A stretch of 64,000 nt of DNA from Minisyncoccota bacterium. GTDB lineage: Bacteria; Patescibacteriota; Minisyncoccia; Phycocordibacterales; JACRKE01. A program made the translations under genes and the position numbers. Positions within the stretch are counted from its first letter, which is position 1; each line of letters opens with the position of its first letter. This document shows positions 3,887-63,667 of the stretch, one piece after another. The stretch spans positions 179,979 through 243,978 of the forward strand of contig JBAZWG010000001.1 of the NCBI GenBank assembly GCA_041660505.1, in the 5' to 3' direction. The notes below the pieces were generated by a model. That model saw nothing but the letters and a program-made list of their open reading frames with translations, had not been told where the DNA came from and did no database searches.

Positions 3887-3905
3887 TAGAAGGCCTCGCC
3901 TTCTA
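3887..3905. repeat. 19-nt hairpin TAGAAGGC-CTC-GCCTTCTA (REP-like), copy 1
   Basis: Perfect 8-bp stem with a 3-nt loop. Identical copies occur at 4560-4578 and 5693-5711. This copy overlaps the stop codon of the Y1 transposase. Confidence 0.8.
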
Positions 3906-4529
3906 TTTATGGTCTATGGTTATGTGGTTTATCGCCGAAAAGTCGTGCTGGCCTGTGATCCACCTGCGATAATCTTTTGGAAGTTCAGTAAAATCATTAA
4001 GAGCTTCTGCCGTAAGGATTTTATCGTACTTTTTCTGATTGCAAAAATCGTGATAGCTTGACCATCGGTACTCGCTCAAATGTTCAATCTCTCGAGGGTT
4101 TAGGTGAATATAGTCGATTACTCCGAGCAAGTATTCTTCGTCGTCAACTAACTTACTTTTAAACGGTCCTTGGAAAAGCGCTCCGCTCCTATCATTCTTT
4201 TCATTAAAGTACATTGTATACGCCGTACCCAACCTTTGCATAAATCTGCTGATTCCCCCTTCTCGACATTCATGCAGAAGCAAATGGAAATGATTGGGCA
4301 TCAAACAGAATGCGACAACGTCTGCAAGTCGCTCCTTTTTCTCATCTTCTTCTGCCCTTTGAGAAAGGACTTCGAATGTATTGGGACTTTGAACTTCTGT
4401 GTCGTTTAAAACTTGGAGATACAAGAGAAATCTTTTGTAGTCTTTATCCTCCTCAAAAATAACACGCTTATCAACGCCGCGATTGTATACATGATGAAAT
4501 GAATCCTCTTCAATTGGTGCGCGATCCAT
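3903..4529 (-). CDS. IS200/IS605-family Y1 HUH transposase, REP-associated (RAYT/COG1943-like)
   Basis: Motifs HVYNRGVDKRVIF, HUH-like MPNHFHLLL, FNEKNDRSGALFQGPF and C-terminal YIHLNP...EYRWSSY match the COG1943/RAYT family as recalled. The gene is flanked by identical hairpins. Confidence 0.75.
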   Translation of the reverse strand: MDRAPIEEDSFHHVYNRGVDKRVIFEEDKDYKRFLLYLQVLNDTEVQSPNTFEVLSQRAEEDEKKERLADVVAFCLMPNHFHLLLHECREGGISRFMQRLGTAYTMYFNEKNDRSGALFQGPFKSKLVDDEEYLLGVIDYIHLNPREIEHLSEYRWSSYHDFCNQKKYDKILTAEALNDFTELPKDYRRWITGQHDFSAINHITIDHK

Positions 4530-4780: not shown

Positions 4781-5032
4781 ATGTTTCAGAAGTGCAGGCT
4801 CTGTAAAAAGGTATATTGGACCGAGTTCCAGTTCGGCGAGCTTGACTTCGAGGGTCGAGAGTTTAACAGGTGTTACGACTGCTTGCTGCAGTTAAGCAAC
4901 AATCCTGATTGGGCTCATCAGATGTCACTCGAATCAACTCCTCCGGCTGAATTCCTTCCATGCGGTCGCTGTGGCCAACTTGACGACTGGTGCCAGTGCG
5001 ACTATACCGACGACACTGAAGCAGACAGCTAA
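4781..5032 (+). CDS. small Cys-rich protein (putative zinc-ribbon), hypothetical
   Basis: 83 aa with CxxC...CxxC and CGRC...CQC motifs. A strong SD AAGGAGG precedes the ATG and an intrinsic terminator follows. Confidence 0.5.
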   Translation: MFQKCRLCKKVYWTEFQFGELDFEGREFNRCYDCLLQLSNNPDWAHQMSLESTPPAEFLPCGRCGQLDDWCQCDYTDDTEADS

Positions 5033-5099: not shown

Positions 5100-5158
5100 A
5101 ACAGACTAATCGCACATTCCCCTTTTTAAAAGGTTTAACCTTCTTTCTATGGTCGCTT

Positions 5159-5656
5159 TTATCTATTGATAATAGTGACTATTTCGCTCGCTGTTTCTTC
5201 CGGAGTTTGATCCGTGCTGTCGATTTTATGATTGTTGGGGAAATGAGATTCAGTTCTATACTTCTCGTTATTCTCGATGGCTGTTTTGTAATCTCTAAAG
5301 CCACTATCTCTGGTTTCTGTTAAAACTCTTTGCTTGAGAATTTCATCATCTCTCAGATAGAGAGTAAAAACTATGGTTTTATACCTTTTCAGTTGCTCTA
5401 AAAGTTTTTCCGATACTCCCCCGCCTATAATTACATTATAGTAGTCGTGTTTTGCATAGTTTTTTAACAAGAGAACTAGATTTTCAACAGTCAACTCTTC
5501 TTCTGCCTCAGAAACATTGGTCCAATCACGATTTAAGTGAAATCCTCGTATCCAATCAAAATCAATATTAACCGAGTTAAGTTTTTCTTTCAGTAGTCTG
5601 GTGAGTGTAGTTTTTCCTGTGCCCTGGGCACCACGAATGAAGATAAAGTTGTACAT
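5159..5656 (-). CDS. P-loop NTPase / kinase-like protein (AAA_33-like)
   Basis: Walker A FIRGAQGTGKTT sits at the N-terminus. The 165-aa size and fold are like small nucleotide/antibiotic kinases. Function is not assignable. Confidence 0.55.
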   Translation of the reverse strand: MYNFIFIRGAQGTGKTTLTRLLKEKLNSVNIDFDWIRGFHLNRDWTNVSEAEEELTVENLVLLLKNYAKHDYYNVIIGGGVSEKLLEQLKRYKTIVFTLYLRDDEILKQRVLTETRDSGFRDYKTAIENNEKYRTESHFPNNHKIDSTDQTPEETASEIVTIINR

Positions 5657-21171: not shown

Positions 21172-21313
21172 AGAATATGATATTAGCAAATATTCCGTAT
21201 TCGTCAAAATAAATCTGCCGAGGTTCGACCTCGGCAATACGGATAAAAACACAGAAGCCCGGGCGGAATGAAGATTTTAACCTCCTTCTCCGCCTCGGGC
21301 TTCGTAAAGAACA

Positions 21314-22722: not shown

Positions 22723-22813
22723 CTATCGCACGGCACGTGCGAAACTTGCTTTATCCTACAGATTTCCGTCAATAACGCAAACAGCGGAGGTTCAACCTCC
22801 GCTGTTCTGTTGT

Positions 22814-22857
22814 CACCGAGGAGAGACCTCCGCTTTTCCGGAGGACTCACCTCGCCG
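22814..22857. repeat. ~45-nt GC-rich palindromic element (CCGAGGAGAGACCTCCG-loop-CGGAGGACTCACCTCGG family), copy 1
   Basis: Imperfect hairpin immediately 3' of groEL. Related copies are at 47953-48000, 48014-48062 and 62533-62579. Confidence 0.7.
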
Positions 22858-26219: not shown

Positions 26220-26312
26220 ATTACAAAGCAGAATTGGAGAATTTAGGAATTTGAGAATTAGGGAATATTCTTAAATTCTAAAATTCTTTAATTCATAAAT
26301 TCTGTCAGAATT

Positions 26313-28121
26313 TTGATCAATTTTCATTTTTTGGAGTCTTTATCGCGCAAGTACGACGAGTTCGGAAAGGCGCTTGCTCCCAAGTCAAAAGCGGGTAAAA
26401 AAATATACGACTTCTTCGGCTATTTCTCTTTGAAAGAAAGATTGGCTTTTTATGTTCTGCTTTTAATTTTCCTCATGAGCTTCGGACTTTTGGTAAAAAA
26501 GCTTAATGATATGATTACGGTTGAGGTGCCTCTCTTCGGCGGAACACTGCGCGAGGGTATCGTGGGCATTCCGCGTTTTAGTAATCCCGTTCTGGCCTCG
26601 AGCGACGTGGATAAGGATGTGGCGAGCCTTATTTATTCCGGCCTTATGCGCGTCGGGTCAGAAGGCAAACTAATCCCCGATCTGGCAGAAAATTATTCCG
26701 TATCTCCAGACGGTCTTACATATACTTTCGTTCTTAAGAAGAATCTTGTATTCCATGACGGGAGCAAGCTCTCGAGTGCCGACGTCGCCTATACTATCAA
26801 TCAAGTTAAGAATCCGATTTTCAAAAGTCCTCGCGGAGCGGCTTGGAGCGGAATCAATATAGAAACTCCCGACGACCTAACTGTTGTGTTCCATCTCAAA
26901 TCTCCTTACGCACTCTTCCTCGAAAGTACGACGTTGGGAATACTCCCGAAAAGTTTATGGAAGAAGACGAATGACGAGACATTCCCCTATAACGAGCTTA
27001 ATCTAGCGGGCGTCGGTTCCGGACCATACAAAGTGGTGAATGTTGCAAAAAATAAAGACAGCGTACCAACAGTATTGACACTCACTGCGTTTAACTCTTT
27101 CACGCTTGCCAAGCCTTATATCAAGAACATCAAACTGTACTTCTACGCGAATGAAGAGGCACGGTCTGCCGCTTATGGAGCCGGTTATATAGACACACTC
27201 TCCGGCATCACAGCGGAGGATGTGGGGGCACTTAACACGGGCAAAGGTCACATAGTCTCATTCTATCTCCCAAGAATCTTCGCCGTGTTCTTCAATCAAA
27301 ACCAAGAATCTGCCTTCACTTACCGTGAGGTTCGCGCAGCACTCGACGCTTCGCTCGATAAAGAAGCCATTACTCGTACCGTGCTTCATGATTATGGCAA
27401 CGCGATAAACGGCACGATTCCGCCGGGTTCGTTCGGCTACGCGAGCAGTACCAATCCTATAAAAGATCAGCCGGCACGCATCGCAAGCGCCCAAGCCCTA
27501 CTGCAACAGAACGGTTGGAATAAAGTTGGCGGAGTTTACCAAAAGAAGTTTACCGGCGACCCTAAGAAAAAGAGTAGTTCGACGGTCGTCTCTCTCGCCT
27601 TCTCTATTTCTACGGCAGACACGCCGGAACTCAAGCGGACAGCAGAACTGATTCGAGACACGTGGAACAGCCTTGGCGCAAAAGTCGAGCTCAAGGTATA
27701 TGAGATCGGCGACTTGAATCAAAACGTCATTCGTCCTCGCAATTTCGATGCGTTATTCTTCGGCGAGATTGTCGGCCGCAACCCCGACCCATTCTTCTAC
27801 TGGCATTCGTCGGAACGCGCCGACCCGGGACTCAATATCGCCATGTACGCAAACCCAGCCGTTGATAAGCTTGTAGACAGCATTCGTGCCAGCGCATCCG
27901 ACAGCGACCGACTAGACAAGCTCCGCAAACTGGACACAGCAATAAAGCGCGACCAGCCGGCTTCATTCATATATGCGCCACAATACATTTATCTTATTAA
28001 TAATCGGGTGCGAGGAGTGACGCCGATGTCTCTCACGACACCCAATGAAAGATTCTCTAATATCTACACCTGGTACATCGATACCGAAAGAGTGTGGAAG
28101 ATTTTTACTAAACAGAATTAA
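26313..28121 (+). CDS. ABC transporter substrate-binding protein, family 5 (peptide/nickel)
   Basis: SBP_bac_5-like sequence throughout. The N-terminal TM anchor is reached from a TTG start. The true start is uncertain (an internal ATG at MSFGLL is possible). Confidence 0.7.
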   Translation: MINFHFLESLSRKYDEFGKALAPKSKAGKKIYDFFGYFSLKERLAFYVLLLIFLMSFGLLVKKLNDMITVEVPLFGGTLREGIVGIPRFSNPVLASSDVDKDVASLIYSGLMRVGSEGKLIPDLAENYSVSPDGLTYTFVLKKNLVFHDGSKLSSADVAYTINQVKNPIFKSPRGAAWSGINIETPDDLTVVFHLKSPYALFLESTTLGILPKSLWKKTNDETFPYNELNLAGVGSGPYKVVNVAKNKDSVPTVLTLTAFNSFTLAKPYIKNIKLYFYANEEARSAAYGAGYIDTLSGITAEDVGALNTGKGHIVSFYLPRIFAVFFNQNQESAFTYREVRAALDASLDKEAITRTVLHDYGNAINGTIPPGSFGYASSTNPIKDQPARIASAQALLQQNGWNKVGGVYQKKFTGDPKKKSSSTVVSLAFSISTADTPELKRTAELIRDTWNSLGAKVELKVYEIGDLNQNVIRPRNFDALFFGEIVGRNPDPFFYWHSSERADPGLNIAMYANPAVDKLVDSIRASASDSDRLDKLRKLDTAIKRDQPASFIYAPQYIYLINNRVRGVTPMSLTTPNERFSNIYTWYIDTERVWKIFTKQN

Positions 28122-28192
28122 AGAATTTCAGAATTTAGGAATTTAATTCATTCTTACATTCTCATATTCTTTAATTCATAAATTCCGTTAAC

Positions 28193-34649: not shown

Positions 34650-37555
34650 TATTCACACTGTTTATCCCCACATCTTTTCTGCCAGAACGACAGGTTTAGT
34701 ATCTCGTTGGCGACCCGCGCAACTTCTTCTTCTAATTTCGATACTTCTTCTTTAGTTATCGTGAAGACTTCTTTTTTGTATTTGCCGATATTCTTGCCTG
34801 CCTGCCGGCGAGGCAGGTCCGGGATAATAAAGTCTATCATGCCGGTCTGCATATTATATTTCTCCTCTTCGTATCTGTCTAACAGAAGTTTATAAAACAC
34901 CAACTGGCGGTGATAATCCCCTTCGGAATTCTTAGTTTTACCCAAGATTTCATTTCGGGATTTAATCTTGCCGGTTTTATAGTCCACTACGTTTACGGCT
35001 CCGTCTGTTATTTCGAGTTTATCGAGTTTGCCAGTCAGTCTTAATTCGCCATCTCCGACCGGAAACATAACGTCTATAGGAAATTCATTTTTTATATCTC
35101 TAGCCCAAGAGTTTTTGTACGCGTCATAATAACCGGATATGGCATCTTTGCCATTTTTCTTTATCTCTGTTAATTCTTTATCGGTGAAATATTCTTTCTC
35201 AAGTTCCCTGTCCAGAGTCTCCAGCAATTCTTTCTTACCCATGTCTTCTTGAACACGATACTTATCGAAGAATTTCTTAAGTGTTGCGTGCACCGCGTTG
35301 CCGAACATGAGCGAGCTGTTCTGCGGCTCGGGAATGCGCAAGAGATTGCGATAGAAATATTTCCACGGACAAGACAGGTAATTATTAAGGCCAGTAACCG
35401 CAAGACCTCTCTCTGATAGCGTCTCGCGCACAAAATCCTGGATATCTTTTCTCGTTTGCGACGTTACAGTCGGCACCAGTATCTGCGCCACTCGTCCCAC
35501 AAGACCGCCTTGTGTAATAGCACACAAGGCGGTCTTGTGTAATAACTTCTCTGGCAGGTCCGCGATAAATCTGCTAGGCAGGAGTGTCGCTCCGTCTTCG
35601 CGCGAAGTTGCGTAGCTTATAGTGAGCTCTTTTTTCGCCCGCGTCATTGCGACGAAAAACAGTTTGCGCTCGTCCGCCTCCTCTTCTTCTTTGGTCGAGG
35701 CAACAATCCCCGGGATTTTGAATACCGTTCGGCTCGCTCGCCCGCCCCAGTTGCCTTCTACGACGCCCGTTATATACACGTGTTCATATTCAAGACCCTT
35801 TGCTTTATGAGCGGTCATTACGAGGACGCGTCCGGCTCGTCTCGTGCCTACGCGACTTTCGAGGACGTTATACTCATCAAGCAAGGATAACACTTTCGCG
35901 ATGTCTTTGATCCGAGCCGAACGGTGAGTTTTAGTATAATCTTCCAGATACGTCAATAAGCGCGCGAGCTTATCCAGCTCTGTGTCTGCATCCGAGTGGG
36001 CAATAAATTGGTTTAACAAGCCTGACTCGCGCAGAATATTAGAGATGAGTTCTGCCGGTGATACGTTCGCGCCAACCTTGGCCCACGAAAGGATAAGTTG
36101 GCGCGCGCGTTCTATCTCGCCTCCCGCACGGACGCGCCATGCCGATATTTTTTTTCTCCGCGCCTCTCGCGCGAGCTCGTATATCTCGAGCTCGTTTATA
36201 TTAAAGCAATCAAGATGCAGAGCCGAGATAAGCGCGAAGTCTTCACCAACTTGCGCCGCCGCATTGAACAAAATCAGCAGTTTCTCTATCAGCGGATCGT
36301 CAAGAATATCTTCCTTTGTTTCTACGGACAAAGCGACGCCGCTCCTTGCAAGCGCCGCCGCATATTGCCCGAGCTCTTTATTGGTGCGGGTAAAGATTGC
36401 GATTTCTTCGGGATTTACGCCTGATTTTATCTTTTTAGAAATTTCTTGTGCAATACAATCTGCTTCGTCCGGCACACTCGCACATTCGTATACCTTTATA
36501 AAAGACTCTTTACGCTTTGCCTTAGCAACAAGATCGGCTCCGGCAATATCCAAAATATTCTGCGTCGAGCGATAATTTTCGGTCAGTGTTATTATCTTCG
36601 CGTCTGGATATTGTTTCTTAAAATTAGTAAAGTTTTCGTGCGAGGCGCCTTGGAATCTGTATATTGCCTGCTTCTCATCGCCGACAATGAATATATTGGG
36701 AGAATCATGAAAGTCTGCGAGCAAATCAAGCACTCTGTTCTGCGCGCCGTTGCCATCCTGATACTCATCGGCAAGCAGATATTGGTACTCCTCTTGCAGA
36801 ATAAGCTTCAAATTTTTATTTGTCTCGAGCGCCGTCACAAGCGCGAGTATCATATCCTCGTAGTCATAGAATAAACTATCGGCGAGTGCTTCTTCATATT
36901 TTTTATAGAGCAAGGCGAGTTCGCGATTCTTAATTATCGCTTCCTCGCGCTTTTGATATTCACCTTTTACTTTGCCTTTATGCGGGCCTTTAATATGTCT
37001 GTAGTCATCTGCCTTTCTGATTACCTGTTCTTCTTTTTTTAAACGAGCGAGAAGTTCACGCGGACTTATGATCTCACGTTTGAGTAAAGAAATTGCCGAA
37101 AGCGTTTTTTGCAGATAGTGGTATGGCGCTCTGTGCGAAGCAAGATGTTCAAGATCGGCAATATCAAAGACTTTTTGCATCAGCAAAATGCGGTCGAGTT
37201 CTGAACATGGCCGCGAGCCCGCCAAGTCGGGGAAATGCTCCGAAAAGCGATTAATCACTTCATTCGCGAACCCGTGGAAGGTAAAAATGGGCACGCGGTA
37301 TGCCGTAACGCCGATTATGGAGACCAGACGCTCGCGCATCGCGGTAACACCGGCATCGGTAAAGGTGAGCGCCAAAATCTGCTCCGGCGCCGTGTCGGTC
37401 TTCTTTAGGATATTCGCAATGCGAAGAGTCAGTATTTGGGTCTTGCCGGTACCGGGGCCGGCCACAACCATCACCGGACCTTCTATATTATCTACAGCAC
37501 TTCTCTGTGCTTTATTCAGTTTTTTGTATATTTCGGTGAAGATTTTAGATGCCAA
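34625..37555 (-). CDS. UvrD/PcrA-type helicase fused to a C-terminal PD-(D/E)XK (RecB/Cas4-like) nuclease (AddA-like)
   Basis: Walker A AGPGTGKTQILT, UvrD motifs and a C-terminal DYKTGK...QLVFYKLLL nuclease core with Cys cluster CGDKQCEYC. A perfect 17-bp inverted repeat is embedded in-frame at 35508-35549. Confidence 0.7.
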   Translation of the reverse strand: MASKIFTEIYKKLNKAQRSAVDNIEGPVMVVAGPGTGKTQILTLRIANILKKTDTAPEQILALTFTDAGVTAMRERLVSIIGVTAYRVPIFTFHGFANEVINRFSEHFPDLAGSRPCSELDRILLMQKVFDIADLEHLASHRAPYHYLQKTLSAISLLKREIISPRELLARLKKEEQVIRKADDYRHIKGPHKGKVKGEYQKREEAIIKNRELALLYKKYEEALADSLFYDYEDMILALVTALETNKNLKLILQEEYQYLLADEYQDGNGAQNRVLDLLADFHDSPNIFIVGDEKQAIYRFQGASHENFTNFKKQYPDAKIITLTENYRSTQNILDIAGADLVAKAKRKESFIKVYECASVPDEADCIAQEISKKIKSGVNPEEIAIFTRTNKELGQYAAALARSGVALSVETKEDILDDPLIEKLLILFNAAAQVGEDFALISALHLDCFNINELEIYELAREARRKKISAWRVRAGGEIERARQLILSWAKVGANVSPAELISNILRESGLLNQFIAHSDADTELDKLARLLTYLEDYTKTHRSARIKDIAKVLSLLDEYNVLESRVGTRRAGRVLVMTAHKAKGLEYEHVYITGVVEGNWGGRASRTVFKIPGIVASTKEEEEADERKLFFVAMTRAKKELTISYATSREDGATLLPSRFIADLPEKLLHKTALCAITQGGLVGRVAQILVPTVTSQTRKDIQDFVRETLSERGLAVTGLNNYLSCPWKYFYRNLLRIPEPQNSSLMFGNAVHATLKKFFDKYRVQEDMGKKELLETLDRELEKEYFTDKELTEIKKNGKDAISGYYDAYKNSWARDIKNEFPIDVMFPVGDGELRLTGKLDKLEITDGAVNVVDYKTGKIKSRNEILGKTKNSEGDYHRQLVFYKLLLDRYEEEKYNMQTGMIDFIIPDLPRRQAGKNIGKYKKEVFTITKEEVSKLEEEVARVANEILNLSFWQKRCGDKQCEYCRLRDIL

Positions 37556-43352: not shown

Positions 43353-43438
43353 CTAGGATATGTTAATTTCTTCCTTGCAAGTATAGCATCGATGTAAACA
43401 CTGTACCACAAACGAGCCAGAACATATCACTACATTTT

Positions 43439-43463
43439 TAGACGGCCGTCACGATTTGTAGTG
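43439..43463. promoter_or_regulatory. palindromic site TAGACGGCCGTC...TTGTAGTG upstream of the regulator gene
   Basis: GACGGCCGTC is self-complementary. A second copy (TTAGACGGCCGTT...TGTAGTA) lies at 44076-44100 after the gene. An extended -10 TGATATAAT sits 6 nt before the ATG, suggesting a leaderless start. Confidence 0.4.
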
Positions 43464-44054: not shown

Positions 44055-44117
44055 AATACTACAAAATTAGACGGCCGTTCAAAAATGTAGTAAATCCGGG
44101 TTTCAAGAATTATGACC

Positions 44118-47763: not shown

Positions 47764-47952
47764 GACAAAACTCCTTTTCCAGCCAATGGGAATGATTCCC
47801 AAAAGCCCTAATTCCTCCGTGGGTGGAGACGTACTGTTCCATGTTCCCCCAGAGGCGAGTGACCGTATCAAGGTTGTTATAGCATACTGCCAACAAGAGA
47901 ACAACTCGACCCCAGTGGCTCATTTCCCACCATTTGACCCGAGGATGCTTGG

Positions 47953-48000
47953 TCGCCGAGGAGAGACCTCCGCTTTTACCGGAGGACTCACCTCGGCGAC
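47953..48000. repeat. GC-rich palindromic element, copy 2
   Basis: GTCGCCGAGGAGAGACCTCCGCTTTTACCGGAGGACTCACCTCGGCGAC. Confidence 0.7.
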
Positions 48001-48013
48001 AGAATATTAAGAC

Positions 48014-48062
48014 GGCAAGGTCTCTCCTCAAGGAGCGGAGCGGGAAGAGGTGAGTCCTTGCC
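48014..48062. repeat. GC-rich palindromic element, divergent copy 3
   Basis: GGCAAGGTCTCTCCTCAAGGAGCGGAGCGGGAAGAGGTGAGTCCTTGCC. Confidence 0.6.
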
Positions 48063-48066
48063 GCCC

Positions 48067-52473: not shown

Positions 52474-52565
52474 GACTAGTTTTTAGTTGGTAGTTTGTAG
52501 TTTTTAGGAAAGCGAATACAAGACACACTATACCAAAATATGCGCCCGATGTGTAGTGCATTTTG

Positions 52566-52602
52566 AGGTTCGACCTTTCAGATGTCCGATAAGGTCGAAC
52601 TT
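52566..52602. repeat. AGGTTCGACCTT-N13-AAGGTCGAACTT hairpin in the serS leader
   Basis: 12-bp stem with a 13-nt loop. It belongs to the AAGGTTNAACCTT hairpin family. Confidence 0.7.
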
Positions 52603-52645
52603 CTGTCGGTATAACTACACAAGGCAGTCTTGTGCCATAACGCCA

Positions 52646-53143: not shown

Positions 53144-54139
53144 TTAGCCAATTGTTTTTTGTATGCCATGTCCATTGCAATGTTTGAGTAGCCCGACATA
53201 TGACTGTATTACATCAGGATTATATTCTTTTCCTACTATATTCCGAAACATTCGTTTTTTAGTCTTTGTTCGCAAAATGCGATGATTTGGAAACTGCACA
53301 TAACCGAGAAAATCAATTCCTTGCCGTAGTTTAGAAATCGAAACTTTTTTCGGATGAAGTGAGAGCTTTAGTTTTTCTTGCAAAAAAACGTTGACACGAG
53401 GCAATAAAGCCTCAAGCTCTGTATGACTTTGTGAAAGTATAACGAAATCATCGCAGTAACGAATGTAGTACTTTTGTTTAAGGATATGTTTTACGAACTG
53501 ATCCAGCTCATTCAGGTACACATTGGCAAACAGTTGGCTCGTCACATTGCCGAGCGGTATTGCCTTGCCTTGTATTTTTTCAAAACTGCCGATGATTTTT
53601 TTGATTAGCCACTTAGTATCTTCTCCGTGGATAACATGAGACAGTAGTCTAAGCAAAATTTCGTGATCGATAGTATCGAAAAACTTGCGAATATCGCATT
53701 TGAGCACATACGCGAGCTGATTATTATTCGCACTAACTCTTCGGCCGAACGCATGCAGTCGCTCGACTCCCGCATGCGTTCCCTTGCGAAACCGGCATGA
53801 GTAGGAGTCGAAGATAAAATGCTGATCGAATTGGTGATACAAGACTCGGAAAATTGCTTGGTGTAGTACGCGATCAAAGACCGTTGCTTTGTGGATGTGC
53901 CGGAGTTTCGGATCGCGGACGTAGAACGCTTCATACCGGCCGGTCTCGTATGTTTTGTTTTTTAGCTGTTCGTGGAGCAAAAACAGATTATCTTCGAGTC
54001 GGAATTCAAATTCCTGAACGTCTTGCTTTTTCGTCTTGCCTCGTTTAAACTCGCGCCATGCGGCAAATAGATTTTCGAGTGAAATAATCCGTTCAAATAC
54101 ATGATCGAAAATTCCACTAATAAGACCCCCCCCCGGCAC
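53144..54139 (-). CDS. DGR reverse transcriptase (paralog)
   Basis: Motifs CDIRKFFDTIDH, AIPLGNVTSQLFANVYL (the [LI]GxxxSQ signature) and YIRYCDDFVIL. The GTG start is immediately followed by an in-frame G9 tract encoding PGGG. Confidence 0.85.
   Translation of the reverse strand: MPGGGLISGIFDHVFERIISLENLFAAWREFKRGKTKKQDVQEFEFRLEDNLFLLHEQLKNKTYETGRYEAFYVRDPKLRHIHKATVFDRVLHQAIFRVLYHQFDQHFIFDSYSCRFRKGTHAGVERLHAFGRRVSANNNQLAYVLKCDIRKFFDTIDHEILLRLLSHVIHGEDTKWLIKKIIGSFEKIQGKAIPLGNVTSQLFANVYLNELDQFVKHILKQKYYIRYCDDFVILSQSHTELEALLPRVNVFLQEKLKLSLHPKKVSISKLRQGIDFLGYVQFPNHRILRTKTKKRMFRNIVGKEYNPDVIQSYVGLLKHCNGHGIQKTIG
54126..54134. repeat. homopolymeric C9 tract (G9 on the RT strand) at the RT2 5' end
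   Basis: agaCCCCCCCCCgg, located in codons 2-5 of the RT2 ORF as called and 70 nt from the avd2 ATG. Confidence 0.9.
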
Positions 54140-54206
54140 TCTCCAAATCCCCTTGGTTCATAAGATTCGTGAAGTATATCGGAGTTTATATATTGTCGGC
54201 AAGCGG

Positions 54207-54491
54207 ATGCCGAAGCGAGATAGGTTCGGAATATACCAACAGCTCGAGACGTTAGTCTTGCTCTGTCTGCGGATTGCTATTACGGCCGCCTTATCAAAAC
54301 CGGAACAAAAGCCTCCTTTCATAACACGCTTGCGTATTGAAATTGAAGTATGCAAACAGCTTATCCGCGTGGCACACGAATTGGGCAGTATTGAGCAGAA
54401 AGATTATTTGATGTTATCAGAATTCCTTATCGAATGTTCCAAGATGTCCTATAAGTGGCTTGAGTCTCTAACCAAAAAGGAGCCGCAGTAA
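54207..54491 (+). CDS. avd: Avd-like four-helix-bundle protein (paralog)
   Basis: ORF 54153..54491 (TTG) with likely start MPKRDRFGIY, paralleling avd1 MPRLERFGLG. It is divergent from RT2. Confidence 0.6.
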   Translation: MPKRDRFGIYQQLETLVLLCLRIAITAALSKPEQKPPFITRLRIEIEVCKQLIRVAHELGSIEQKDYLMLSEFLIECSKMSYKWLESLTKKEPQ

Positions 54492-54513
54492 TGCGACTCC
54501 GCTTGGCGAGACT

Positions 54514-54626
54514 ATCTCACGGGTACGCAGGTTCTCGTTCGCATTGTCCGTGTTGTACCAGTTGACGTTCAGCTTGTCGTAGTTCCAGTTCACGTTCGGG
54601 ACGTTGCCGTCGGAATTGCGCGAGCC
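54514..54626 (-). repeat. DGR2 template repeat (TR)
   Basis: 113-nt match to 54934-55046. All 19 mismatches are T (plus strand), so A on the minus strand. Confidence 0.8.
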
Positions 54627-54857
54627 ATGTGTTGCCTCATGCCATCCACTTCACTGGCGGTCTTTTGCAAAGTCGCCTGTTCCCGTTTCTCGCGGTACTG
54701 CGCCGAGGCAGCTCTGTTTGGAGGCAGACTGCAAAATTATTTTTGCAAGACATCCTCGCCAGCATGAGGCACGTAGTTTCGTATAGACTGTGGCAAACCG
54801 ATATCTCGTTTTTTATGCGAGACCGATTGTATGAGCCAGATTAGTAGTATAAAAGAA

Positions 54858-54890
54858 TCGAACCCCATTTGCCAGAGGCAAACAGGGTTC
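54858..54890. repeat. hairpin downstream of VR2
   Basis: CGAACCC-cauuugccagaggcaaaca-GGGUUCG, about 45 nt 3' of the target stop in minus sense. Confidence 0.5.
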
Positions 54891-54922
54891 GAAAAGTGTA
54901 CAAAATAAAAAGGAGGCAAGTG

Positions 54923-55642
54923 TTACGAAACGACCTCACGGGCACGCAGGTGCTCGTGCGCACCGTCCGCGTCGTACCAGTGGACGCTCAGCTTGCCGTA
55001 GTACCAGTACACGAGCGGGACGTAGCCGCCGGAATAGCGCGAGCCCGAGCACAGCGTGATGTTCACGCTGTCCAAATGCTTCCCCGTTTCGAGGAAGTAC
55101 TTGAGCTCCAGGTCAAGGCGCTCGGGCAAGCTGATGCCCTGTACCTTCTTGTCCTCGAGGTCGTTGGCGGAGCAGTTCTTCCACTCGGCGTCTGCCTCAA
55201 CGCCGTCCCGCACCCAGATGGCGTGGGGCTTTTCGGTGCCGAAACGGTCGTTCCGCGTCACCGACGCGTCGAGGTCGGCCGTGTAGCGCCAGCAGGTGAA
55301 CTGCTTGGCGCAGACGTCGAACCTCCGGTTGATGGTGACGCCCGGTGCCTCGATGATGAGGCGACCGAAGCCCGGACGCGTGACGGGGATGGCGAGCTCA
55401 CGCAGGTCGAGTTTGACCTTGTAGAGATCGCCCCAATAGGCAATCCACGGGGTGAGCAACTTCTTGCGTGCCCGCCCGCCGAGCGCGCGCGGCCCCGTGC
55501 CTGCGCGCTCGAGCTTGAACGGGTTCCGACGCTGGAGGAAGAGCTTGACCTCTTCCTCGCTCAAGGCACCCGCCTTGAGCTTCGCCGTGAAGTCGACCAA
55601 AAGGTCGAACTTCGTGTTGTTACCGGCCTGTCCGTCAGACAT
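54923..55642 (-). CDS. DGR2 target protein (C-type-lectin-like C-terminus carrying VR)
   Basis: SD AGGAGG precedes the ATG by 6 nt. The C-terminus ...SGSRYSGGYVPLVYWYYGKLSVHWYDADGAHEHLRAREVVS is encoded by the VR. Confidence 0.7.
   Translation of the reverse strand: MSDGQAGNNTKFDLLVDFTAKLKAGALSEEEVKLFLQRRNPFKLERAGTGPRALGGRARKKLLTPWIAYWGDLYKVKLDLRELAIPVTRPGFGRLIIEAPGVTINRRFDVCAKQFTCWRYTADLDASVTRNDRFGTEKPHAIWVRDGVEADAEWKNCSANDLEDKKVQGISLPERLDLELKYFLETGKHLDSVNITLCSGSRYSGGYVPLVYWYYGKLSVHWYDADGAHEHLRAREVVS
54934..55046 (-). repeat. DGR2 variable repeat (VR)
   Basis: A/G/C at the 19 positions where TR2 has T (plus strand). Confidence 0.8.
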
Positions 55643-55839
55643 AGCCAGCCTCCTTTATTTCAATGCCTTTGGCTTTCCGGCAAACTATTTGCCATAAAAC
55701 CGCAAGCGTTCAGCTGGTTTTATATTATACAATAATTTACAATCTGTCAAGATAGGTTTTTTCGCTTAGTACACAACTTGGCACGGCCGTAACAAGTTAT
55801 GTACTATTATTTTTATAGCACACAAGACTCCCCCGTGTG

Positions 55840-57924
55840 CTACTCCAATACCCGCAAGATGAAGGCATACTCGAAGGCCAGTTCACGTAGAGCGTTGTAA
55901 CGGCCTGATGGACCGCCGTGGCCGGCTCCTAGGTGAGTTTTTAACAAAATAACGTTGTCATCGGTTTTAAGGGCGCGGAGTTTGGCGACCCATTTGGCCG
56001 GCTCCCAATAAGCGACGCGGGCGTCGTTCATCCCGCCGAGGACGAGCATATGCGGGTAGGCCTTTGCCTCAAGATTGGTGTACGGCGCGTAAGATTTGAT
56101 GTAGTCAAAGTAGGCGCGCTCGTTCGGATTGCCCCATTCTTCATATTCACCTACAGTCAGAGGTAGGGATGAATCCATCATCGTGTTAAGACTGTCGACG
56201 AATGGCACATGTGCCACGACGGCACGGAAGAGCTCCGGTCGCAGATTGGCTACAGCGCCCATGAGCAAGCCCCCAGCACTACCGCCAGCCGCGATCAACT
56301 TTTCCGGTTTAGTGTATTTTCTTTTAATCAACTCTTCAGCAGAGGCGATAAAGTCGAGAAAAGTGTTTTTCTTTTTTAGAAATTTGCCTTCATGATACCA
56401 GCGCCGGCCAAGCTCACCTCCCCCGCGCGGGTTGGCGAAGGCCATAACATAACCGCGATCGGCAAGCGAGAGCCTCGTCGAAGAAAACCATAAATCGTAC
56501 GAAATTCCATAAGCACCGTAAGCCGTAAGCAGTGTCGGGCTAGCTCCATCTTTTTTTATGAGCGCGGTTTTATAAAAAATGGAGACAGGAACTTTTGTCC
56601 CATCGTGAGACGTCGCGTCGAAGCGTTCTACTGTATATAAAGATGAGTCATAACCGCCGACGACTTCCTCCTGCTTGCGTACGGTGCGTTCGTGAGTGCG
56701 CATATCATAATCATACACAGTTGACGGTGTGCGCAGTGACGAGTAGGTGAAGCGTAAAGTTTCCGAGTCATATTCCGGATTACTGCCGACACCAAAGGCA
56801 TAAGAAGCATCGTCGAAAGTAATGTCGCGCCAGCTCTTCTTCTCCAGATCATAGATCTTTAGGAATTGCAGGCCGTGTTTGCGTCCTTCGAGAACGATGA
56901 AATTTTTAAAGGCATCTACATCGTTAATCGTCACGTCGTCATTATGCGGGACGAATTCCACCCAAGAACTTTTCGGCGCGTCGAAGCTCTTCGCAAAAAG
57001 GACTTTAAAGTTTATTGCGTTCTCGTTGGTGATAATATACACACCCGCCTCATGATGCTCTACATCGTACTCTATATCCTGCGCGCGCGGTATAAATACA
57101 GAAAATTTCTCTTCCGGTTTATCTGCATCCATGTATTGCGTCTCGCTCGTTGTATAGCCGTCGGAATTAATAAAGAGATATTTCTCGCTCCGGCTCTTCG
57201 ACACATAGGTCACGAAGCGTGAATCTTCTTCTTTATATATAAGCGCACCAGCCTCATTCCCGAGTTTGCGCCGATGTATCTCCGCCGGGCGCTTGGTCTC
57301 ATCAAGTACGGAATAGAAATAAGTTGCGTTATCATTTGCCCATTCGAAGTTCGCAGCGACACCAGTTACGGTATCGGCAAACAGTTCGCCTGTCTCTAAA
57401 TTCTTGAAATATAAAGTGTAGATTTCGTCACCTGAAGTATTAACGGCGTAGGCCAGAATTTTATGATCCGGCGAGACTGATAATGTGCCGATAGAAAAGA
57501 ATTCGTGATCTTTCGCCAGTTCATTCTCATCCAAAAGAATTTGCTCTACTTCACTATCAATCGGTTTACGACAGTAGACGGGATACTGCTTGCCTTCTTC
57601 GGTGCGTAAGTAGTAATAAAAAATATCTATTCTTTCGGGCACCGACATGTCTGTTTCTTTAATCCGGCCGAGCATCTCTTTATATAATTTCGTCTGTAGC
57701 TCTTTGGTCTCTGCCATCACCGCATCGGCGTATGAATTTTCTGTCTTGATATATTTAAGCGTATCGGGGTCGTTAATATCCTTAAGCCAGTTATATTTGT
57801 CCTCATATTTTTCGCCATGATAGTCATGAGCAAAATCCAGCCGTTTGGCGACCGGTGGCGTAATCCCCTTTTTCACGTATTCCGAAGTGCTGAACATAGT
57901 TTTGTTATTATACCACAAAATCAC
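55840..57924 (-). CDS. S9-family serine peptidase (prolyl oligopeptidase / oligopeptidase B-like)
   Basis: Beta-propeller N-domain plus a catalytic domain with nucleophile motif GGSAGG and Asp/His downstream. The start may be at an internal Met (MFSTSEY). Confidence 0.8.
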   Translation of the reverse strand: MILWYNNKTMFSTSEYVKKGITPPVAKRLDFAHDYHGEKYEDKYNWLKDINDPDTLKYIKTENSYADAVMAETKELQTKLYKEMLGRIKETDMSVPERIDIFYYYLRTEEGKQYPVYCRKPIDSEVEQILLDENELAKDHEFFSIGTLSVSPDHKILAYAVNTSGDEIYTLYFKNLETGELFADTVTGVAANFEWANDNATYFYSVLDETKRPAEIHRRKLGNEAGALIYKEEDSRFVTYVSKSRSEKYLFINSDGYTTSETQYMDADKPEEKFSVFIPRAQDIEYDVEHHEAGVYIITNENAINFKVLFAKSFDAPKSSWVEFVPHNDDVTINDVDAFKNFIVLEGRKHGLQFLKIYDLEKKSWRDITFDDASYAFGVGSNPEYDSETLRFTYSSLRTPSTVYDYDMRTHERTVRKQEEVVGGYDSSLYTVERFDATSHDGTKVPVSIFYKTALIKKDGASPTLLTAYGAYGISYDLWFSSTRLSLADRGYVMAFANPRGGGELGRRWYHEGKFLKKKNTFLDFIASAEELIKRKYTKPEKLIAAGGSAGGLLMGAVANLRPELFRAVVAHVPFVDSLNTMMDSSLPLTVGEYEEWGNPNERAYFDYIKSYAPYTNLEAKAYPHMLVLGGMNDARVAYWEPAKWVAKLRALKTDDNVILLKTHLGAGHGGPSGRYNALRELAFEYAFILRVLE

Positions 57925-59152
57925 CTCCTTGATAAGCCCTCAAAAACTGTGATTTATGGTCTAAAAATGTGTCATTCAAAATAGACTGCCTGATATTTTT
58001 TACTAAGTTAACAAAGAAAAATAAATTATGAATAGAGGCTAGTGTGTACGCAATCAGTTCGTTGGCTCTGAATAGATGCGCAAGATAGGCGCTGGTATAA
58101 TGCTTGCAGGTGTAGCAGACGCAGTCTGGTTCTATCGGCGTTAAGTCTGTTCTATACTTTGCATTCAACACACTGATACGGCCTTGCTTGGTGTACAGCG
58201 CGCCATTGCGCGCTTCTCGCGTGGGGCTGACACAATCGAAAGTGTCGACGCCGTTTTCGACACCCAGGAATAAATCTTCTACTGCGCCTATGCCAAGCAA
58301 ATGTCGCGGTTTATCTTCGGGCAAGATTTTATTCACCCAGCTCACTGCCGTACCCATATCTGCTTTATCAAATGATCCACCGATGGCATAGCCGTCGAAA
58401 TTCATGGAACTAATTTTCTTTGCGCTTAACTCTCTTAAATCCTGATGCCTACCTCCCTGAACTATTCCAAATAAAGCCTGCGGATTTTCTAAGGTTAAAC
58501 CTTGGGCATCTAGAAGGTTTAACCTTCTATGCTCGGCAAGACTTCTTTCAGCCCAGCGATGCGTTCTTTCTAATGACTGTTTCTGATACTCATATGATTC
58601 GGTCGGTGAGGTGCATTCGTCGAAGGCGAGGATAATATCAGCGCCCAAGTCGTGCTGGATCTGCATCGACTTCTCTGGTGTGAAGAAATGTTTAGAGCCG
58701 TCTATATGCGAGCGGAACTCGACGCCGTCTTCGGTGATTTTTACGAGAGATTCTTTTGGTACCGATAAGGTTGAACCTTTTGGATGCTCAAGGTTCAACC
58801 TTCCTGGTTCAGAATTCAAAATTTTCCCAATCCCTTTGCCGAAGCTCGCACCTAGTGAGAACACTTGGAATCCGCCCGAGTCGGTAAAGGTCGGCCCCGG
58901 CCAATTCATGAATTTATGCAAGTCGCCGGCTTTTTTAACGAGCTCACTCCCCGGTTGTAGATATAAGTGATAGGTGTTGGCGAGCACAGCATCGGCTCCA
59001 AGCTCTTTTACTTGTTCTGGTAGCAACGCCTTAATCGTCGCTTTGGTGGCCGGCGCGATGTATGACGGCGTCAGGATGTCGCCATGCGAAGTAGAAATAA
59101 CTCCCGCTCGCGCGAGAGTATTCTTGAGTTTCTTTTCGATACGGAAGTTCAT
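57908..59152 (-). CDS. tgt: queuine tRNA-ribosyltransferase
   Basis: ORF trimmed to MNFRIEKK so that it does not overlap the gyrB stop. Tgt motifs and the zinc site CVCYTCKHY...H are present. Two in-frame 36-nt hairpin insertions lie within the CDS. Confidence 0.85.
   Translation of the reverse strand: MNFRIEKKLKNTLARAGVISTSHGDILTPSYIAPATKATIKALLPEQVKELGADAVLANTYHLYLQPGSELVKKAGDLHKFMNWPGPTFTDSGGFQVFSLGASFGKGIGKILNSEPGRLNLEHPKGSTLSVPKESLVKITEDGVEFRSHIDGSKHFFTPEKSMQIQHDLGADIILAFDECTSPTESYEYQKQSLERTHRWAERSLAEHRRLNLLDAQGLTLENPQALFGIVQGGRHQDLRELSAKKISSMNFDGYAIGGSFDKADMGTAVSWVNKILPEDKPRHLLGIGAVEDLFLGVENGVDTFDCVSPTREARNGALYTKQGRISVLNAKYRTDLTPIEPDCVCYTCKHYTSAYLAHLFRANELIAYTLASIHNLFFFVNLVKNIRQSILNDTFLDHKSQFLRAYQGGDFVV
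58490..58525. repeat. AAGGTTAAACCTT-N10-AAGGTTTAACCTT hairpin inside tgt
   Basis: Perfect 13-bp stem. It is in frame and encodes RRLNLLDAQGLT. Confidence 0.8.
58767..58802. repeat. AAGGTTGAACCTT-N10-AAGGTTCAACCTT hairpin inside tgt
   Basis: Perfect 13-bp stem. It is in frame and encodes GRLNLEHPKGST. Confidence 0.8.
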
Positions 59153-62409: not shown

Positions 62410-62484
62410 TGGAGCCGCCTCTCGGATTTGAACCGAGGACCCACGCTTTACAAAAGCGTTGCTCTACCACTGAGCTAAGGCGGC
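62410..62484 (-). tRNA. tRNA-Thr (anticodon UGU)
   Basis: Reverse complement GCCGCCU-UA-GCUCAGUGGUAGAGC-A-ACGCU-UUUGUAA-AGCGU-GGGUC-CUCGGUUCAAAUCCGAG-AGGCGGC-U-CCA. Confidence 0.9.
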
Positions 62485-62532: not shown

Positions 62533-62579
62533 GTCGCCGAGGTGAGACCTCCGCCCTTGCTGGAGGACTCACCTCGGCG
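62533..62579. repeat. GC-rich palindromic element, copy 4
   Basis: GTCGCCGAGGTGAGACCTCCGCCCTTGCTGGAGGACTCACCTCGGCG. Confidence 0.7.
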
Positions 62580-63569: not shown

Positions 63570-63667
63570 AGTTTTAAATGTTAAGTTTTGAGTTTTAAAT
63601 TAATTTTTAAGATTTTCAATTTGTAAATTGAATTAAAACTTAAAAATCGAAACTTGAAACTTATCGC

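Follow-up and report, generated by a model that had tools for sequence, protein, structure and literature searches.

The window analysed here is a 64,000-nucleotide stretch of a Minisyncoccota bacterium genome (assembly GCA_041660505.1, contig JBAZWG010000001.1, positions 179,979 to 243,978 of the forward strand). It contains tgt, which encodes queuine tRNA-ribosyltransferase (Tgt), and within the coding sequence of this gene lie two 36-nt hairpins, each built from two inverted copies of a short palindrome. In layout these hairpins resemble REPINs, the inverted doublets of repetitive extragenic palindromic (REP) sequences that go with REP-associated tyrosine transposases (RAYTs), and the window also encodes a RAYT-like protein. 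The host gene and the elements at its two sites, A and B, are as follows.

57908..59152, minus strand: tgt (queuine tRNA-ribosyltransferase), the host gene; Pfam TGT match, intact, full length
58491..58526, minus strand: REPIN-like doublet A in tgt; arms 58491-58503 and 58514-58526, loop 58504-58513
58767..58802, minus strand: REPIN-like doublet B in tgt; arms AAGGTTGAACCTT / AAGGTTCAACCTT, 10-nt loop

The tgt reading frame (minus strand, 57908-59152/59161) matched Pfam TGT over its full length (E = 3e-136). The Joint Genome Institute (JGI) gene call for the protein, P0001 (414 aa), begins MNFRIEKK, three residues after an alternative start (MSSMNF). Since the conserved motifs of the enzyme align across orthologues (DSGGFQ, DEC, the TFDC aspartate and the CxCxxC...H zinc site), the gene looks functional. 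An initial annotation of this DNA had described the genes that carry such hairpins as essential; tgt is indeed a conserved housekeeping gene, though it is not known to be strictly essential in model bacteria.

Both hairpins have perfect 13-bp stems, 10-nt loops and complementary central bases, in agreement with the stems and loops that the initial annotation had reported inside the tgt coding sequence. Its coordinates for hairpin B were exact, and those for hairpin A (58490-58525) were one base off. The arms of doublet A are AAGGTTAAACCTT and AAGGTTTAACCTT, separated by the loop GGGCATCTAG, and one arm extends to a 19-nt palindrome, TAGAAGGTTTAACCTTCTA, at 58511-58529 (of the form TAGAAGGTT-N-AACCTTCTA). 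The hairpins had also been proposed as in-frame additions of 12 codons, which agrees with what was found: both elements are 36 nt long, doublet A encoding Tgt residues ~R213-T223, read in frame as (R)RLNLLDAQGLT(L), and doublet B residues ~R121-T131, read as (G)RLNLEHPKGST(L). The peptide segments for the two inserts are RLNLEHPKGSTL and RLNLLDAQGLTL. Each arm is itself a palindrome, the arm centres are 23 bp apart, and both elements have the inverted-pair layout of a REPIN that folds into a hairpin. DNA folding gave -10.9 kcal/mol (z = -5.5) for hairpin A and -12.6 kcal/mol (z = -4.6) for hairpin B. No direct repeat flanked either element, site B having CCAGGA before and ATCGGT after the insert and site A having GAGCAT AG before and AGAAAA after it. 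At gathering scores, Rfam 15 had no match at the hairpins, either in the window or in 11 related loci that carry hairpins with similar loops; its matches in the window were RNase P RNA and four tRNAs only.

Compared to the solved Tgt structures of Escherichia coli and Zymomonas mobilis, two segments are added in the window protein, one after FQVFSLG (site B) and one that separates the RWAERS helix from ALFGIVQGG (site A). AlphaFold2 modelled residues 103-135 (the site B loop) with a predicted local distance difference test (pLDDT) score below 50, and in the same model site A lengthened a helix and then ran into a moderately confident loop. The insertion loops are surface or variable regions of the protein. 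Its nearest relatives are Tgt proteins of Patescibacteria (Paceibacteria/Parcubacteria), and DNA was compared for six close tgt orthologues, obtained by exact-protein look-ups; these and other related loci are given here by L numbers. L208 and L209, whose Tgt proteins are 75% and 78% identical to that of the window over the aligned amino acids, had no hairpin at either site, and their site-B segments were 27 and 17 residues long, compared to 35 in the window. L001, L002 and L004 (74-80% aligned identity) had perfect hairpins at both sites, the stems of which were not always the same. At site B, L002 and L004 carried GAGGCGAGACCTT-N10-AAGGTCTCGCCTC, with a recognisably window-like loop and four stem pairs exchanged on both arms, and L001 carried an unrelated 19-bp stem. 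At site A, L001 carried AAGGTTGAACCTT...AAGGTTCAACCTT, in which the central pair differed from that of the window on both arms and the loop held a nested insert of 33 nt; L002 had kept the first palindrome and had a different second one; and L004 carried ACTTGGCGCTC-G-GAGCGCCAAGT. The more distant L127 tgt gene (63% identical) had a hairpin with a 10-bp stem and a 10-nt loop at site A, carrying CAAGGTCTTGCCTTG, which matches CTAGGTCTTGCCTAG, the REP that flanks the RAYT-like gene of the same genome.

The comparison was extended to the 87 Patescibacteria tgt genes among the matches listed, with the two sites placed by MAFFT-based mapping. Perfect hairpins with stems of at least 9 bp clustered at the site A and site B loops and at the gene termini, and the stems at the loops were unrelated between lineages. 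Given this clustering and the unrelated stems of different lineages, the two loops are permissive sites in which hairpins have come to stand time and again, and Tgt does not have the hairpins as a conserved feature. Consistent with this, the insertions were not conserved in distant Tgt proteins, the E. coli and Z. mobilis enzymes being without the segments, and L208 and L209 were without the hairpins; conservation across distant taxa would have spoken against the mobile palindromes suggested in the initial annotation. The insertions are also not recent: relatives whose Tgt is 74-80% identical have them too, and the stems have turned over.

The abundance of the 13-mer AAGGTTNAACCTT and of related palindromes was determined in the 64-kb window and in a further 16 kb of sequence attributed to the same genome, out of a source contig of 719 kb. 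Exact matches to AAGGTTNAACCTT were found at five positions in the window (5130, 58491, 58514, 58767 and 58790), compared to a mean of 0.01 per window in 100 dinucleotide shuffles, none of which gave five. The most over-represented odd palindrome of the window was AGGTT.AACCT, with six copies (0.06 expected). Over-representation of REPs, a feature of REPIN-RAYT systems, was evident in the exact 13-mer (5 vs 0.01), in AAGG-N5-CCTT (9 vs 1.0 expected) and in AGG-N5-CCT palindromes with at least one further outer pair (19 vs 2.3 ± 1.2). The frequency of the 13-mer in the window was therefore far above the chance level. Perfect hairpins with stems of at least 10 bp numbered 20 in the window and 0-4 in shuffles, and several of their stems were unique.

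A copy of the 13-mer that stands alone lies near the other end of the window, in the neighbourhood of the RAYT-like gene. The features of this region are listed below.

3903..4529, minus strand: RAYT-like Y1 (HUH) transposase gene, 208 aa, with an HFH motif and a YIHLNP tyrosine motif
3887..3905, minus strand: REP TAGAAGGCGAGGCCTTCTA (minus-strand reading), overlapping the RAYT stop codon
4560..4578, minus strand: identical copy of TAGAAGGCGAGGCCTTCTA, 31 nt upstream of the RAYT start codon
5694..5712, minus strand: third identical copy of TAGAAGGCGAGGCCTTCTA, between the start of a kinase-like open reading frame (ORF) and the stop of a TPR-protein gene
5130..5142, no strand assigned: single REP (AAGGTTTAACCTT) inside this REP-rich RAYT neighbourhood

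The lone 13-mer had been placed at these coordinates, after a kinase gene, in the initial annotation, and it does follow the stop of the kinase-like ORF (5159-5656), at a distance of 17 nt. The third TAGAAGGCGAGGCCTTCTA copy is 1.1 kb away from the pair that flanks the RAYT-like gene. The REP of tgt, TAGAAGGTTNAACCTTCTA, and that of the RAYT flanks, TAGAAGGCGAGGCCTTCTA, have their outer 7+7 bases in common and differ in the central five. Between two of the RAYT-flank palindromes, on the strand opposite to the RAYT-like gene, there is also an 83-aa cysteine-rich ORF (4781-5032, plus strand) with four CxxC-like pairs, for which Pfam gave no match.

The starting point of the transposase search was the Y1_Tnp gene that adjoins tgt in L127. 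When its protein was compared to six-frame ORFs of the collected loci, 14 further matches besides the query were obtained, one of which was the window ORF 3903-4529; a Y1/HUH tyrosine transposase is hence encoded in the same genome as the tgt elements. This ORF scored 31.7 bits against Pfam Y1_Tnp (cutoff 23), and all 14 proteins that were aligned (13 matches and the L127 query) passed that model. The HUH histidines and the YIHxNP tyrosine were invariant in the alignment. For each of four RAYT-like proteins scanned against NCBIfam, the REP_Tyr_transpos model (NF047646) was the only match, below its cutoff. A profile of the 14 proteins had 4ER8 (E. coli TnpA-REP) as its best PDB match (E = 0.002); a single-sequence PDB search with the RAYT-like protein gave no match. 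In the annotation these homologues are labelled only as transposases.

The source contig encodes at least two more RAYT paralogues, 66% and 56% identical to the window protein, the loci of which were read from another assembly's contigs encoding identical proteins. The three paralogues of the source genome are each other's closest relatives, and their flanks carry palindromes that are related, though not identical, to the tgt REP. One of the two further genes was flanked by TAGAGAGTT-C/G-AACTCTCTA; the other was flanked by GTAAGGCGAAACCTTAC / GTAAGGTTTCGCCTTAC, with four more copies in 7 kb, including a doublet with an 18-bp stem inside argS. The tgt palindrome corresponds to the outer stem of TAGAAGGCGAGGCCTTCTA, the first REP, combined with the GTT-N-AAC centre of the second paralogue's REP. 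In other genomes, too, RAYT-like genes were flanked by palindromes. In L088, L024, L052, L023, L063, L078 and L096, AGGTTNAACCT palindromes or doublets lay immediately beside the RAYT-like gene, and mostly so on both sides. RAYT genes that had been found without this DNA pattern (L157, L210, L211 and L127) were also bracketed by palindromes that recur nearby, namely ACTTGGAAGC-TTC-GCTTCCAAGT in L157 and CTAGGTCTTGCCTAG in L127. REPs were also present in frame inside RAYT-like genes themselves (L157 314-352 and 622-650; L107 569-602), and the intragenic copies of L157 were of the same type as the palindromes that flank that gene.

When one genome of each GTDB species was scanned for AGGTTNAACCT-N(8-38)-AGGTTNAACCT, at least 120 loci were obtained, and the following figures rest on the loci listed. 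A Patescibacteria lineage was named in 80 of 120 titles. The central bases of the two arms were complementary in 106 of 142 doublets, compared to 25% expected by chance; the pairs are therefore hairpins and not direct repeats. Their stems extended past the core with genome-specific flanks, their spacers ranged from 8 to 38 nt, and many of the intergenic doublets lay between runs of A and T. Among the hairpin-type doublets, 46/106 were in stop-free stretches of at least 200 aa and 50/106 in stretches of less than 100 aa. All ten host ORFs that were tested were conserved genes (pheT four times, topA, polA, gatB, uvrC, a Mur ligase and a UDP-GlcNAc 2-epimerase). Such elements thus appear to be widely tolerated by Patescibacteria inside housekeeping genes, and the phenomenon is phylum-wide, not specific to the source genome.

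In three of the four pheT carriers (L028, L079 and L124), the AGGTTNAACCT doublet was at residues ~82-98, just before the B3_4 domain, which suggests that this position is another permissive hot spot like the tgt loops. A similar loop, G(G/A)ATC(T/G)G(A/G)A(A/G)AA, was seen in AAGGTTNAACCTT doublets of different Patescibacteria classes (L018, L033, L036, L038, L075, L116, L054 and L057), several of which were a few hundred bases from tRNA genes.

The tgt hairpins are quite probably miniature REPIN-type elements that RAYT-like Y1 transposases have spread by acting on DNA folded as a single strand. Each element is a doublet of 13-19-nt REPs, inverted and separated by a 10-nt spacer, so that a single strand folds into one long hairpin. 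The REPs would serve as substrates of RAYT-like Y1/HUH tyrosine transposases, of which the genome has at least three, each bracketed by its own REP variant; TAGAAGGCGAGGCCTTCTA, TAGAAGGTTAAACCTTCTA and the 36-nt doublets are candidate single-stranded substrates. By analogy with E. coli TnpA-REP and the TnpA proteins of IS200/IS605, the enzyme may bind the hairpin where it folds in the single-stranded DNA of the replication fork, cut beside it through a 5'-phosphotyrosine link and have the strand rejoined elsewhere without a target-site duplication. Copies that landed in genes would survive only if their length were a multiple of three, if they held no stop codon and if the loop tolerated extra residues. 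Both tgt copies fit these conditions: they are 36 nt long, read RLNL...G(L/S)T and are in variable loops. In close relatives the stems have been exchanged for other REP variants, and unrelated hairpins stand in the same loops in other lineages. A RAYT would be the enzyme that moves the elements, by a single-strand mechanism, and the 12 extra residues are presumably translated. The initial annotation had spoken of miniature mobile palindromes tolerated inside genes; the evidence supports and refines this reading, in which mobility is what we infer.

Several observations weigh against this interpretation. The exact 13-mer is scarce, with five copies in 64 kb and none in the other 16 kb assigned to this genome; hundreds of copies are usual for classical REPINs. 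None of the three RAYT paralogues is flanked by exact AAGGTTNAACCTT, their REPs being TAGAAGGCGAGGCCTTCTA, TAGAGAGTTNAACTCTCTA and GTAAGGCGAAACCTTAC. The window protein scored 46 bits against NF047646, which has a cutoff of 80, as befits a distant relative of the curated RAYT family, and the PDB match of the RAYT-like profile was weak. The orthologue comparison yielded no transposition event and no clean empty site with exact boundaries, and the flanking loop sequence also differed between orthologues. Classical REPINs, moreover, are ~100 bp long and almost exclusively extragenic (bioRxiv 10.1101/2021.07.10.451892). A further point comes from the degree of conservation at site A. Between the window (58491-58526) and L001 (2081-2149), the site-A element was identical at 34/36 positions, the two differences compensating each other, while the identity of the tgt genes was 68% as a whole and 42% at third codon positions. 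Conservation of the element is far above that of its host gene, and passive tolerance of a selfish insert is not, on its own, an explanation. The site-A element must be kept intact by some process, be it conversion from other copies, correction templated by the hairpin, or selection.

Dispersal by RAYT-like transposases has to be set against other accounts of the same hairpins. The tgt hairpins could be selected structural elements of the transcript or the DNA, acting in pausing, processing or stability, with the pairing kept at two fixed positions. Four related genomes with hairpins at these two sites agree with this, as do the compensated changes in the stems (the central A/T to G/C at site A, and four pairs on both arms at site B), the 34/36 identity of the site-A element against 68% for the gene and 42% at third positions, and the site-A hairpin, with its 10-bp stem and 10-nt loop, in the 63%-identical orthologue of L127. 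The equally close L208 and L209, however, are hairpin-free at both sites, and most of the 80 more distant Patescibacteria tgt genes listed have no hairpins at sites A and B, or have hairpins elsewhere. The same palindromes are also found between genes, within many unrelated genes and next to RAYT genes, and the hairpins match no Rfam family; a structural role in tgt was judged quite unlikely. Local template switching or fold-back errors in indel-tolerant loops, with the stems kept by hairpin-templated correction and no transposase involved, would predict stems derived from neighbouring sequence, and not one 13-mer at four or five unrelated places in the window. Such errors also leave unexplained the one core that is found across the phylum, the palindromes that bracket RAYT-like genes, and the outer stem common to the tgt palindrome and the RAYT-flank palindrome of the window. 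They would account for the excess of perfect hairpins of at least 10 bp in the window (20 vs 0-4 in shuffles, several with unique stems) and for the unrelated stems in the same tgt loops of different lineages. Compensated changes, too, would be expected from quasi-palindrome correction and fit this account, to which we give a small chance of being right.

The paired 13-mers were also considered as a double operator, present inside tgt by chance, for a dimer-of-dimers protein of the LysR/OxyR type. Their arms are palindromic and 23 bp apart from centre to centre, about two helical turns, and the E. coli OxyR consensus in RegulonDB, GATAGGTTnAACCTATC-N5-GATAGGTTnAACCTATC (PMC3013702), contains the same core, AGGTTnAACCT. 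A protein bound to a double-stranded palindrome would be indifferent to the central base, yet this base was complementary in 106/142 of the listed doublets; the spacers, too, range from 8 to 38 nt, and the sites are found deep in unrelated coding regions and beside transposase genes. The complementary central bases and the RAYT link led to the rejection of an OxyR-like operator, which is very improbable. A further alternative, in which the 36-nt units would be guide-RNA units that have strayed from a TIGR-Tas or CRISPR-like system, is scarcely credible, even though length and host phylum coincide, TIGR RNAs being 36 nt long and TIGR-Tas systems common in Patescibacteria (PMC12045711). The units form no tandem array, show no edge-repeat/spacer/loop-repeat/spacer layout and have no box C/D motifs; they are read in frame as parts of a conserved gene, and the protein associated with them is a Y1 transposase and not a Nop-domain Tas. 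Neither a TIGR array nor a Tas gene was found in the window, and this candidate was rejected on layout.

A wider proposal is offered tentatively, as one that may well turn out to be wrong: that Patescibacteria carry a miniature REPIN-RAYT system, the 30-60-nt hairpins of which are routinely in frame in housekeeping genes and are actively maintained by RAYT-dependent conversion or by selection. If true, the lineage-specific loop insertions that are typical of Patescibacteria proteins would have here a major source that has so far gone unrecognised, and the system would be one in which to test whether a named enzyme family puts palindromes into genes. The very short in-frame REP doublets of tgt, pheT, topA, polA, gatB, uvrC, argS and the RAYT genes, with palindrome-bracketed RAYT-like genes as candidate mobilisers, make it possible to test how a defined enzyme may give rise to peptide insertions in conserved proteins, and may explain part of the many lineage-specific protein insertions in these ultra-small bacteria. 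There is also a consequence for annotation, in which the transposases are labelled only as such and the hairpins have no annotation.

Further palindromes were found elsewhere in the window, one of them upstream of serS and beside a complete diversity-generating retroelement (DGR; 53144-55642).

52565..52603, no strand assigned: diverged REP doublet, GAGGTTCGACCTT - 13 nt - AAGGTCGAACTTC, with a 10-bp perfect core at 52568-52600
53144-54139, minus strand: DGR reverse transcriptase
54153-54491, plus strand: DGR bAvd-like gene
54507-54626: DGR template repeat
54926-55045: DGR variable repeat, at the 3' end of the target gene (54923-55642, minus strand)
22818-22853, 47952-48000 (and 48013-48063), 62535-62579: GAGG(A/T)GAGACCTC doublets
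21216-21236, 22780-22806: single extended palindromes with a GAGGTTC(A/G)ACCTC core
35498-35539: perfect hairpin with an 18-bp stem and a 6-nt loop (CACAAGACCGCCTTGTGT...), 42 nt, in frame

The serS-upstream hairpin, which is 92-130 nt 5' of the serS start (52473) and ~540 nt 3' of the DGR reverse-transcriptase gene (end 53144), had been described as a related hairpin at 52566-52602. It is real, and its description required correction in that it is imperfect, with a 13-nt loop (-10.3 kcal/mol), and spans 52565-52603. Between the template and variable repeats of the DGR, 19/20 mismatches were at template adenines. Since the S9 peptidase gene and serS adjoin in the relative L004, the DGR cassette is an insertion in the window, and the REP hairpin stands at its edge. 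Assignment of this hairpin to the DGR was considered and rejected; it is 540 nt past the reverse-transcriptase stop and not beside the variable repeat, and it was treated as a REP.

In the second doublet family, GAGG(A/T)GAGACCTC is paired with GAGGACTCACCTC at 23-24 nt from centre to centre, and one doublet is directly upstream of a tRNA gene (62413-62484). The 35498-35539 hairpin was placed in the helicase-nuclease linker of a UvrD/PD-(D/E)XK gene, and its stem family has two more copies in sequence attributed to the same genome (L210, 6979-7028 and 8422-8466). Three related palindromes of the form TACTACA...ACGGCCGT...TGTAGTA, in short intergenic spacers (43428-43463, 44057-44092 and 55767-55806), could be terminators or a further repeat family. 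AT-rich palindromic stretches of GAATT/AGAATTT-like units were present beside gene ends at 26229-26304, 28115-28177 and 63570-63661.

Among known systems, the uptake sequences of Neisseria and Pasteurellaceae are likewise short over-represented motifs that are found between genes, often as inverted pairs acting as terminators, and within genes, in less constrained parts of proteins. Unlike the elements described here, they are non-palindromic, number about one per kb and have no association with a transposase gene. A classical MITE (a miniature transposable element with inverted repeats) dependent on a DDE transposase is not a match, as no direct repeat flanks either tgt element. With IS200/IS605 the system has in common a transposase of the Pfam Y1_Tnp superfamily, with HUH and a catalytic tyrosine, a gene bracketed by short hairpins, and the lack of target duplication. 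The window gene, however, has identical palindromes on its two flanks and no distinct left and right ends, palindromes are scattered alone at many sites far from transposase genes, and the three source-genome paralogues are diverged (56-66% identity), with palindromes of their own, and are not identical copies of an insertion sequence. An IS200/IS605 element was rejected on these grounds.

The classic puzzle of palindromes inserted in frame has been known mostly from Rickettsia. Rickettsia palindromic elements (RPEs) are in-frame insertions in unrelated conserved genes, the peptides of which are at fold-compatible positions (PMC10969869). The tgt elements are similar to RPEs in being in-frame palindromic repeats in conserved genes of a bacterium with a reduced genome; they differ in that RPEs are ~100-150 bp long and add 30-50 residues, compared to 36 nt and 12 residues in tgt, and in that they have no sequence similarity to RPEs and a Patescibacteria host, and they are not RPEs as these are defined. 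To our knowledge, no transposase has been tied to RPEs, whereas here there is a candidate enzyme family beside the repeats.

REPINs have been described mainly from Proteobacteria, such as Pseudomonas and E. coli. In these elements, central bases mark the orientation, spacers are variable and runs of A and T flank many copies (PMC3337134). The system described here differs from the classical one in the length of its elements, which are 36 nt in tgt and 30-60 nt across the phylum, compared to ~100 bp; in location, since a large share is in frame in housekeeping genes and not extragenic; in the low copy number of the exact motif in the sequence covered; and in its transposases, which are ~210-240 aa long and below the NCBIfam RAYT cutoff, in Patescibacteria hosts. 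The likeness is nevertheless extensive. Short palindromes in inverted pairs with a variable spacer form a hairpin in which central bases mark the orientation, several REP variants occur per genome, each apparently with its own Y1/HUH gene bracketed by it, and runs of A and T flank many of the copies between genes, in the manner of terminators, with no visible target-site duplication. In the literature searched, no paper connected RAYT or REPIN with Patescibacteria. REPIN-RAYT systems and RPEs were already known; what is new here is that the elements are very short, often intragenic and in frame, and present in a phylum from which the literature searched describes no such systems.

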